From Escherichia coli (GTDB lineage: Bacteria; Pseudomonadota; Gammaproteobacteria; Enterobacterales; Enterobacteriaceae): a stretch of DNA of 7,912 bases. The position numbers and the translations under genes were made by a program. Shown in pieces: positions 5,867 through 7,912 of this stretch. The stretch lies in the NCBI RefSeq assembly GCF_003334355.1, contig NZ_QOWP01000062.1; one strand, given 5' to 3'. Position 1 is the stretch's first letter; each line of letters starts with the position of its first letter. The notes below the pieces were generated by a model. It was not told where the DNA came from. It searched no databases and saw only the letters and a program-made list of their open reading frames with translations.

Positions 5867-7507
5867 TCACACCGTAGCGAAACTAACTGGTTCACCCGCT
5901 CCGCGAGGTTCTGCCGACACAGAATGTTTGTGCAGACGGAATACATCCACCGCCTCAGTTAATCGTGCCGCCTGTTCTTCAAGGGACACCGCCGCCGCTG
6001 AGGCCTCTTCTACCAGAGAAGCATTCTGTTGCGTCACCTTATCCATTTCAGAAATCGCCTGGCTAACCTGCGTTATGCCTCTACTTTGTTCATCCGAGGC
6101 GGCGGCGATTTCCTGCATGATATGTGTGACACTCGCGACGGCATCAACAATAGTGCTCATGGTTTTCCCGGCCGTTGCCACCTCATCCGACCCCAGGTCA
6201 ATTAACCTGACTGATTCACTGATCAAGCCTTCAATCTCTTTCGCCGCCTGAGCGCTGCGACTTGCGAGTGTCCGTACTTCGCTGGCGACAACGGCAAATC
6301 CACGCCCTTGCTCACCCGCTCGCGCGGCTTCAACGGCAGCATTCAGTGCCAGAATATTCGTCTGGAAAGCAATACTGTTGATGACGGCGGTGATCTCAGA
6401 AATTTTCTTCGAACTCGTGGAGATAGCGCCCATCGTTTTTACTACACCGGAAACCGTCTGCCCGCCATCGCTGGCTTTAATAGAAGCCTCTTGCGCCAGT
6501 TTGCTGGCATGATGCGCGTTATCCGCATTCTGTTTCACCGTCGCAGTGAGTTGCTCCATGCTGGCGGCAGTTTGTTCGATAGCCGCCGCTTATTCTTCGG
6601 TGCGAGATGACAGGTCCGCATTGCCAGCTGAAATTTCGCTGGTGCCACGATAAATCTCTTCCGCGCCCTGTCGAACAGTCCCTACTGTCATCCCCAGTGA
6701 ATGCTGCATTTGCTGTAAATGACGACTTAAGCGACCGATTTCATTACGACCCGCCGGTTCATCATTCATCGTCAGATCGCCACTGGCGATTTTTTCAATC
6801 CGTTGTGCGGCATGTTGCAGTGGACGAATGACGATCCGACGTAGCACCATAAATGTTATCAGCGTCATGACCAGGGCAAGCACAAACGCGCCAATCATGA
6901 ACATCCCACCCAGGCGGGTGCGCTGATGGGCCAGTTCCGCCAGTTGGTTGGCTCTGGTGCTACGTATCTTAACGGCTTTGTTCAAAATATCGGTATAAGC
7001 ATTATCCAGCGGTCGGATCTGCTCACTTTCATGATTGATAATCGCTTCAAACATGCCATTTTTGGCATATTTCAACATAGGTTGCATACCCGTGATATAA
7101 GCCTGAAAGCGTTGATTTAATTCAGTGTCGAGGGCTTCATCAGCAGGTGTTTTCACCGGTCGATTCTGATAAGCACGATAACCTTGCTGCGACTGTTTAA
7201 TCTCCGATTCGGCTTGCGCAATATTTCGCTTCATTGCTTCCATTTCCGCAATACGACTCGCAGCCCCGGCCTGAATCATATTGATCCGGGCTGAACGCAA
7301 AAAATCTGAACTGTTCGCTAACCCGGTCCGAATCTCAATCTCCGCAGTAACATCACGCTGATCGCGATCGGCCTGCCAGAGGAAATAGCCAGCCAGAGCA
7401 GAACTTAATGCGAATAGAACTAAGATACCGCCAAGAATGCAGGCAAATAACGGAACCAGCCTGATGTGATGCAAAAAACCTAATCGATGTGAGGGAGTTG
7501 TATTCAT
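5867..7507 (-). pseudogene. trg: Methyl-accepting chemotaxis protein III (ribose/galactose chemoreceptor) with an in-frame premature TAA at codon 306
   Basis: Track ORFs 6590..7507 (305 aa, MNTTPSHRLGF...) and 5867..6559 (230 aa) are in the same frame. The first ends SSRTEE-TAA (plus 6590-6592); the 10 intervening codons read [10 protein letters not shown], then [15 protein letters not shown]... continues into the conserved signalling domain. 305 + 1 + 10 + 230 = 546 codons, the full length I recall for Trg. Confidence 0.8.
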
Positions 7508-7546
7508 TACCGTTGTCTCTCGTCCAGGTTTACTCCTGATAGAAAG

Positions 7547-7573
7547 TCATCGGCACTTGACGGTAATTACTTA
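7547..7573 (-). promoter_or_regulatory. Candidate sigma28 (FliA) promoter for trg
   Basis: Minus-strand GCCGATGA (plus 7547-7554) matches the sigma28 -10 consensus GCCGATAA at 7/8 and lies about 40 nt upstream of the trg ATG. An 11-nt spacer separates it from TAAGTAAT (plus 7566-7573), a 4/8 match to TAAAGTTT. trg is a known flagellar class 3 gene. Confidence 0.4.
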
Positions 7574-7724
7574 TGACCAAAAACCTCTTTGCGTCACATT
7601 TTTACAACAATTATTGCAAAGAAAATTAATGCTATTGGAATGAAGAGAGTAACGAATGGCTAAACTGGCTAACCCGAATGACGAAAAATTCTGGAAAACA
7701 GCACGCAATTTCGTGAAGTGATTA

Positions 7725-7753
7725 TTTTCGTCCCTAAGGAAACCTCATAGGAT
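7725..7753 (+). promoter_or_regulatory. Possible promoter for the hok-type toxin mRNA (hokB/mokB transcript)
   Basis: TTTTCG-17 nt-TAGGAT (weak) placed just upstream of a sequence (from about 7758: GGGUGCCUGAGACUUUCUGUUUUCAGGC) that resembles, from memory, the 5' end of plasmid R1 hok mRNA. That 5' region forms an 8-bp hairpin (7764-7771/7780-7787). Confidence 0.25.
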
Positions 7754-7799
7754 GCCTGCGGGTGCCTGAGACTTTCTGTTTTCAGGCTAACCGGGAATC

Positions 7800-7853
7800 A
7801 GAAAGACGAAGGCCCCGACCGATATTTCTATCAACTGTACTGCACCCATTTTG
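7800..7853 (-). ncRNA. sokB: Putative Sok-type antisense RNA (sokB-like); ends approximate
   Basis: Transcript predicted from the strong minus-strand promoter at 7861-7889. It is antisense to the toxin mRNA leader just upstream of the putative mokB start. The complementary plus-strand leader (CAGAAAGACGAAGGCCCCG) resembles the R1 hok leader I recall. The 3' end is not defined by a clear terminator. Confidence 0.4.
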
Positions 7854-7860
7854 TTGGACG

Positions 7861-7889
7861 ATGAAATGGAATAGCCCCTAATATGTCAA
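7861..7889 (-). promoter_or_regulatory. Near-consensus sigma70 promoter on the minus strand (antisense/Sok promoter)
   Basis: Minus strand reads TTGACA (plus 7884-7889), a 17-nt spacer, then TTTCAT (plus 7861-7866). The -35 is a perfect consensus, the spacing is optimal and the -10 is 4/6. The -35 overlaps the plus-strand ATG at 7883. Confidence 0.5.
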
Positions 7890-7912
7890 AGCCAAAATAC
7901 CCTTTTGAAAAG
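7883..7912 (+). CDS. mokB: 5' end of putative mokB-like reading frame (hok/sok family modulator ORF), truncated by the window edge
   Basis: ATG at 7883 opens MSKPKYPFEK..., which runs off the window. It starts like R1 Mok (MSSPHQ..., from memory) and sits where the antisense promoter overlaps. No Shine-Dalgarno is visible. The Hok toxin ORF would lie beyond 7912. Confidence 0.3.
   Translation, partial: MSKPKYPFEK

Follow-up and report, generated by a model that had tools for sequence, protein, structure and literature searches.

The spacer upstream of the chemoreceptor gene trg in this Escherichia coli genome raises the question of whether antisense transcription from a neighbouring toxin-antitoxin locus runs into the FliA-dependent promoter of trg and interferes with it. 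We analysed a stretch of 7,912 nt (the window), with the focus on the 393 nt upstream of trg (7508-7900), where the initial annotation had placed a sigma-28 promoter of trg, a toxin mRNA promoter and a strong antisense promoter, the latter driving antitoxin RNA synthesis in the direction of trg. Collectively, our data support the notion that this region is the trg–hokB/sokB spacer cut by the insertion sequence IS150, that the supposed antitoxin promoter at 7861-7889 is silent IS150 sequence, that interference at the trg promoter lacks a driver, and that the arrangement is a common polymorphism. This joint reading is given a probability of about 0.88.

The open reading frame list and whole-window searches revealed the gene order ydcK'–rimL–ydcH–opgD–hglS(ydcJ)–ydcI–trg of the E. 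coli chromosome. According to the K-12 annotation, sokB, mokB and hokB are located in the spacer upstream of trg, with sokB being co-directional with trg and hokB divergent. The previously proposed gene identities, trg and a type I toxin-antitoxin locus of the hok/sok type, were right. Positions 7508-7900 represent the E. coli spacer between trg and hokB/sokB, into which IS150 is inserted at 7835/7836. Between 7480 and 7835 the alignment with K-12 is identical save two single-base differences, at 7487 in trg and at 7619 in the spacer. Position 7619 occurs in three alleles among the compared sequences (A in the window, G in AR_0019, T in K-12). Furthermore, the interval separating the trg promoter from the hokB promoter contains a 21-codon open reading frame (MAKLANPNDEKFWKTARNFVK; 7656-7721, plus strand), preceded by GAAGAGAG, whose DNA is shared without a difference by K-12 and AR_0019; the annotations of K-12 and of the examined relatives show no gene at this place. 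At the opposite end of the window, positions 1-76 were found by direct sequence search to be the left end of an IS1203/IS629-type element of the IS3 family, inverted and inserted in ydcK. Hence, with IS150 at 7836-7912, the window is bounded on both sides by IS ends, like a contig from a short-read assembly. The features are compiled in the following table.

Table. Features of the trg–hokB/sokB region (window coordinates unless a locus handle is given)
Feature	Position	Strand	Basis or remark
trg	5867..7507	-	Ribose/galactose methyl-accepting chemoreceptor gene; pseudogene in the present strain; open reading frame list and alignment
FliA (sigma-28) promoter of trg	7546..7573	-	28-mer identical to the K-12 ChIP-seq motif
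hokB mRNA promoter	7725..7753	+	Homology to hokC/hokA; K-12 Term-seq
hokB mRNA leader, first 76 nt	7760..7835	+	Rfam RF01794; cut off by IS150
SokB antitoxin RNA gene, 3' remnant, 34 of 57 nt, promoterless	7802..7835	-	K-12 annotation mapped
Target-site duplication AAC, left copy (3 bp)	7833..7835		Junction comparison
IS150 left end	7836..7912	+	Terminal inverted repeat TGTACTGCACCC...; the window ends within the element
Outward-facing IS150 proto-promoter	7861..7889	-	TTGACA (7889-7884)-17-TTTCAT (7866-7861); Fuqua & Wagner 2025
IS150 junction positions compared	window 7833-7836; L001 4437/5879; L004 2541/3983; L006 2208/3650		
IS150 junction positions compared, continued	L008 2237/3679; L007 2230/3672; L003		

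The presence of IS150 is evident from several lines of evidence. In the alignment the K-12 homology breaks off at 7835, and the following 77 nt (7836-7912) are identical to IS150 of K-12 and to IS150 copies of other E. coli genomes and plasmids. The start codon of its insJ (orfA) gene is found at 7883-7885, approximately 48 nt inside the end. The TGTACTG... repeat, the 3-bp duplication and the position of orfA place the element as IS150 in the IS3 family. The left junction reads ...TATCAAC/TGTACTG, and the right junction ...CAGTACA/AAC... could be read in AR_0019 and PSS-12. These two complete relatives harbour a 1,443-bp IS150 and, past it, the second AAC copy, the remaining sokB/hokB leader and hokB in intact form, in the gene order trg – IS150 – hokB – yncP – cybB; their full-length IS150 is annotated with a frameshifted transposase.

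The trg gene carries CAA→TAA at 6590-6592 (minus strand), a single C→T change in the alignment with K-12 and AR_0019, which leaves 305 of the 546 codons; in the open reading frame list the gene is split into two in-frame pieces (6590-7507 and 5867-6559). The stop falls after residue 305, within T-E-E-Q-A-A-A. The same change, annotated as 'internal stop', occurs in the near-identical strain PSS-12 (Ecuador, human faeces). The promoter of trg consists of a -35 element TAAGTAAT at 7573-7566, an 11-nt spacer and a -10 element GCCGATGA at 7554-7547 on the minus strand, with transcription probably starting at about 7540. The sequence 7573→7546 (TAAGTAATTACCGTCAAGTGCCGATGAC) is exactly the 28-mer that Fitzgerald, Bonocora and Wade (2014) gave as the FliA ChIP-seq site of trg in K-12, and the trg RNA amounted to 108 in the wild type versus 4 in the fliA deletion (Fitzgerald et al. 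2014). As defining features of a FliA class 3 promoter we used the consensus TAAAGTTT-N11-GCCGATAA, FliA binding and FliA-dependent transcription. The trg site agrees with the sigma-28 consensus in 11 of 16 positions, including 7 of 8 in the -10 element, a match that by sequence alone is not above chance, with other window sites scoring equally and shuffled sequences giving a mean of 2.6. Given the identical sequence, the binding and FliA dependence known from K-12 indicate that the site most likely acts as a FliA class 3 promoter here as well. RNA polymerase with FliA would then start leftward trg transcription from 7573-7547, the product being truncated by the stop codon. The sigma-28 promoter had been predicted at 7547-7573, right to the base.

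On the opposite strand, the initial annotation had correctly suggested a toxin mRNA promoter at approximately 7725-7753, which turned out to be the hokB promoter. It comprises a weak -35 element TTTTCG (7725-7730), a 17-nt spacer and the -10 element TAGGAT (7748-7753), followed after 6 nt by GGGTGCC at 7760. In an alignment of the leaders, TAGGAT is matched by TATAAT in hokC and by TAGAAT in hokA at equal distance to the conserved mRNA start GGGTGC, pointing to G7760 as the probable start site and to TTTTCG as the likely -35 element. An abundant hokB-sense 3' end at 1492156(-), corresponding to window position 7821, has been listed in the supplement of the K-12 Term-seq study (Adams et al. 2021) and implies an active promoter upstream on the plus strand in K-12. 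This 3' end is situated 5 nt past the 5' hairpin of the leader. The Cappable-seq and SMRT-Cappable-seq supplements contain no entries at this locus, i.e. for the start sites of hokB, sokB or trg. From 7760 on, a structured 5' leader of a toxin mRNA was found that matches the covariance model of the family. The Rfam sok/hok-leader model RF01794 scored 72.4 bits over 7760-7912 (gathering score 59), compared with 109.7 bits for the intact K-12 locus, and the alignment is good just to about 7835, i.e. for the first ~83 model positions; the predicted 5' hairpin (7760-7816) has -28.5 kcal/mol and z = -4.5. The Hok and Mok reading frames are located outside the window, which ends in IS150, while hokB is annotated as intact in AR_0019 and PSS-12 about 70-100 nt past the right end of the element. 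Judged from the homology and the K-12 Term-seq data, the weak sigma-70 promoter with TAGGAT would start the hokB toxin mRNA rightward at about 7760, and the transcript would after 76 nt enter IS150, reading co-directionally with its transposase genes. Within such a read-in transcript, a 10-bp hairpin is predicted at 7846-7869 (plus strand; CCAUUUUGUU-GGAC-GAUGAAAUGG) in the left inverted repeat; being located just upstream of the orfA start, it might limit transposase translation from these transcripts.

The antitoxin gene was affected most by the insertion event. The K-12 sokB annotation (1492119-1492175), mapped by window = 9978 - L002 position, corresponds to 7858→7802. Native SokB is predicted to fold into a 14-bp hairpin (GGCCUCGGUUGAUA-GAAA-UAUCGGUCGGGGCC) followed by UUCGUCUUU, a terminator-like structure, and IS150 is inserted in its 5' arm. 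What the remnant 7835→7802 retains of the terminator is the loop with the 3' arm and the subsequent U-rich tail. The larger part of the 5' arm (GGCCUCG) is found in the complete relatives across IS150, together with the sokB promoter and the 5' 23 nt of sokB. When the remnant is joined to the adjoining IS150 sequence, nothing similar is predicted to form (-9.2 kcal/mol, z = +1.2). The window lacks an antisense Sok RNA gene that has a promoter of its own and a terminator hairpin overlapping the leader; IS150 landed within sokB, in the 5' arm of the terminator hairpin, and left just the promoterless 34-nt remnant to face trg. The true sokB promoter (TTGCCG-17-TAAGAT, 8/12) is located in the complete relatives 1.44 kb away on the hokB side, outside the window. 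There, the promoter and the first 26 transcribed bases (23 nt and the duplicated triplet) are directed into the IS150 right end. On this antisense strand, 43-78 nt inside that end, the element has a 15-bp hairpin and, after it, TTTAATTT. The predicted chimeric RNA contains two strong hairpins, the second one terminator-like (-45.7 kcal/mol, z = -6.1). Because of this hairpin and the very stable chimeric fold, we infer that transcripts from the sokB promoter would stop in the right end of IS150 rather than cross the element.

The chimeric RNA corresponds to L001 5785-5905 (minus strand), on the far side of IS150 in AR_0019. In the predicted fold, the SokB 5' arm GCCUCGG pairs with the IS150-internal CACGAGGC, and the second, 15-bp hairpin is followed by UUUUAAUUU. 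The single-stranded 5' tail of SokB is preserved in this model, such that a chimeric antitoxin-like RNA is conceivable. In this regard, a SokB-internal 3' end has been found by Term-seq in K-12 at 1492144(+), corresponding to window position 7833, which leaves a 26-nt 5' fragment. This fragment is exactly the part of SokB that is still joined to the sokB promoter in the IS150-bearing genomes.

In genomes without the insertion, sokB is arranged in tandem with trg and not convergent, and about 228 nt separate its annotated 3' end, which follows the predicted hairpin and U-rich tail, from the trg -35 element downstream. A defined end of the antisense RNA well upstream of 7600, which the initial annotation had named as evidence against interference, is hence supported for uninterrupted genomes by annotation and predicted fold, but it is unlisted in Term-seq. 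The K-12 Term-seq data do not contain the annotated SokB 3' end, and between sokB and trg they show no 3' end on the plus strand (K-12 orientation) except the SokB-internal one. These data neither prove nor exclude SokB read-through towards trg in K-12.

The decisive question is whether the motif at 7861-7889 acts as promoter. It was assumed to be a strong antisense promoter of the antitoxin; the motif was indeed found at these coordinates, roughly where the sokB promoter lies in uninterrupted genomes, but it belongs to the interior of IS150, is inactive in a reporter assay and does not represent the antitoxin promoter. The motif scores 10/12 against the sigma-70 consensus, its -35 box TTGACA overlaps the transposase (insJ) start codon at 7883, and its -10 box TTTCAT is devoid of the key A at position 2. 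Sequence statistics were of little help. The window contains two sigma-70 sites of at least 10/12, which is not above chance (2.1 ± 1.5 in shuffles), and a stricter consensus scan of 7400-7912 rejected the 7861-7889 motif and reported neither sigma-70 sites nor terminators; hence, motif counting cannot settle the promoter question. Because none of the three motifs exceeds chance by sequence, the case for the trg promoter and the hokB promoter is built on external experiments and on homology. Moreover, hexamer counts alone cannot exclude activity, because the motif reaches 10/12 while the genuine sokB promoter has 8/12. More direct evidence is provided by a two-colour reporter study in which a 150-bp fragment from the left end of IS150 was mutagenised (Fuqua & Wagner 2025), with the fragment placed on a plasmid and not in its chromosomal context. 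The wild-type IS150 ends had been picked there as being without detectable promoter activity. For the parent 1L(-), hotspot #4 was TTTCAT 17 bp downstream of a -35 box; the wild-type TTTCAT gave 1.10 units, with 1.0 meaning no expression, compared to 3.26 units for the mutant TaTCAT (Fuqua & Wagner 2025). An active sigma-70 promoter on the minus strand should combine a -10 element that has A as its second and T as its sixth base with measurable activity, and this combination was not found at 7861-7889. The motif is a silent proto-promoter, neither strong nor an antitoxin promoter, and one T→A change away from an active one.

These results can be weighed against other explanations. If the motif at 7889-7861 were nevertheless a strong active promoter, its transcripts would run for approximately 280 nt into the sigma-28 promoter of trg and either occlude it or add FliA-independent transcription. 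The perfect TTGACA, the 17-nt spacer and the 10/12 score are in favour of such activity, as is the free path ahead: any transcript leaving the left end of IS150 would reach the trg promoter, because the SokB terminator is broken and the consensus scan detected no terminator-like site on the minus strand between 7835 and 7508. However, the lacking A in TTTCAT, the reporter value that rose only with the T→A change, the origin of the sequence from IS150 instead of the toxin-antitoxin locus, and the equal frequency of sites of at least 10/12 in shuffled sequence make it very unlikely. An even smaller chance is given to the displaced sokB promoter as driver, which after the loss of its terminator could read antisense through the 1.44 kb of IS150, exit at 7836 and reach the trg promoter. 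In favour of this idea, the complete relatives have preserved the sokB promoter with its first 26 transcribed bases, aimed into the right end of IS150, and the insertion has divided the native terminator hairpin; however, such transcripts would have to pass the 15-bp hairpin at the right end as well as the predicted terminator-like fold of the chimeric RNA. In addition, an untranslated antisense RNA of 1.4 kb would be a target of Rho. The outward promoter that has been reported for IS150 is located at its 3' (right) end, and in the present genome this end points toward hokB and away from trg.

Least probable among these explanations is a coupling without any antisense RNA, in which the divergent trg (sigma-28) and hokB (sigma-70) promoters, with starts about 220 nt apart, would be linked via shared regulators or supercoiling. 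The two promoters are divergent and close, and the K-12 Term-seq read counts suggest abundant transcription of the hokB leader; yet divergent promoters at such spacing are commonplace, evidence for coupling was not found, and the expression of trg is explained by FliA, as seen from the drop of its RNA from 108 to 4 in the K-12 fliA deletion. Thus, we prefer the reading of an IS150-cut spacer with a silent motif. According to the consensus scan and the published reporter data, no active minus-strand promoter is known between the interior of IS150 and 7573, and neither antitoxin nor any other known transcription would be expected to run from 7889-7861 toward the trg promoter. The initial suggestion that antisense transcription from 7861-7889 might interfere at the trg promoter found no support, given the reporter-inactive motif and the lack of another known active leftward promoter. 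Interference of the tandem type would need an active promoter upstream whose transcripts traverse the one downstream, and no such promoter is known here; antisense interference with the trg promoter is unsupported and without driver in the present genome. With one T→A exchange in the IS150 motif, sigma-70 transcripts would probably enter trg, but such an activation is moot in the present strain, because trg carries the stop at 6590-6592.

The arrangement is widespread. A 140-nt junction probe was covered to at least 80% in 562 of 5,426 complete E. coli genomes, while the uninterrupted K-12 site (at least 80% covered) was found in 4,512 of the complete genomes. Insertions of IS150 in hokB/sokB have reportedly also appeared in the long-term evolution experiment, which we did not use as evidence. 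Repeated IS150 insertions in the trg/mokB, hokC/nhaA and hokE regions have been described for evolving lineages of E. coli B, and sokE::IS150 is known from more than 400 natural isolates and sokA::IS150 from MG1655. Moreover, a survey of mobile-element insertions located four hok/sok homologs near E. coli insertion hotspots, and in the same survey an IS150 insertion assigned to trg was associated with sensitivity to amoxicillin-clavulanate. A literature search for hokB together with IS150 found no paper. We regard the present arrangement as a natural polymorphism that is common and belongs to several recurrent insertions of IS150 sharing one spot in hok/sok loci. Every component of it is already known, i.e. 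the FliA promoter of trg, the hokB/sokB locus, IS150 in hok/sok loci and the silent motif of the IS150 left end.

The comparison of paralogous loci uncovered an additional regularity. IS150 is found at the homologous spot of the hok leader/Sok terminator palindrome in five loci, namely hokB, hokC, hokA, hokE and plasmid hok, with their own 3-bp duplications (AAC, ACC, AAG, CCC and ACC, respectively) and with the transposase in hok-sense orientation in 5 of 5 loci. The duplicated triplet directly precedes the YGRGGCY arm, except for hokB of PSS-12 with one extra C in between. An exception is also hokA of K-12, where IS150 is inverted and a deletion is adjacent. The hotspot itself has been reported; a statement on the base-level and orientation regularity was not found in the literature examined. 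It seems improbable, albeit worth mentioning, that IS150 is directed to the Sok terminator palindrome of hok/sok loci, in one orientation, and that this affects function. If true, transcription from the constitutive hok promoter would continue into the transposase genes, and the displaced sok promoter would produce a chimeric RNA of ~110 nt that starts with the 26-nt SokB 5' end, terminates at the right-end hairpin of IS150 and could act against both hokB and transposase mRNA. Likewise, the silent TTGACA-17-TTTCAT, one mutation from being active and with no terminator ahead, would represent a latent FliA-independent promoter of trg. Hence, the insertion would rewire the toxin-antitoxin system and not merely kill it. 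Repeated IS150 insertion in the Sok terminator hairpin could be of interest for studies on the target choice of transposons and on the decay of toxin-antitoxin systems. Two lessons can also be drawn. A textbook -35/-10 match of 10/12 may be inactive while the genuine sokB promoter matches in 8/12 positions, and a gene neighbourhood taken over from K-12 can mask the boundary of an insertion sequence.

Compared with known systems, the locus combines familiar parts in a rearranged form. It shares with K-12 (b1421, b4429, b1420, b4428) the FliA promoter of trg, the hokB promoter and leader and the 3' part of sokB, and the K-12 equivalent of 7508-7835 differs by one SNP (7619). However, the K-12 locus is uninterrupted, with its sokB promoter about 50 nt past the point where IS150 starts here, whereas in the window IS150 splits sokB and parts the hokB promoter from the mokB/hokB reading frames, and trg has a premature stop. 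Regarding the motif itself, an antisense promoter in an IS end is familiar from IS10, where pOUT is active and the resulting RNA-OUT covers the ribosome-binding site of the transposase. The IS150 motif resembles pOUT in being sigma-70-like, directed outward from an IS end and close to the start codon of the transposase, but it differs by being silent, and its transcript would begin near 7854, on the upstream side of the ribosome-binding site and the start codon, and head away from both. A role as antisense regulator like RNA-OUT was ruled out on these grounds. The hexamers and spacing are identical to hotspot #4 of Fuqua & Wagner (2025) in its inactive wild-type form, with hotspot #3 (TGACAT) of the IS150 left end overlapping; the sequence is the same as in the reporter construct but the context differs, since here the motif faces a chemoreceptor promoter without a terminator between. 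Finally, the same element in the sok gene or hok leader, as found here, is known from the IS150-disrupted sokA of K-12, sokE, trg/mokB, hokC and hokE; the insertion in the window is the hokB copy, unlike the K-12 hokA with its inverted element and adjacent deletion.
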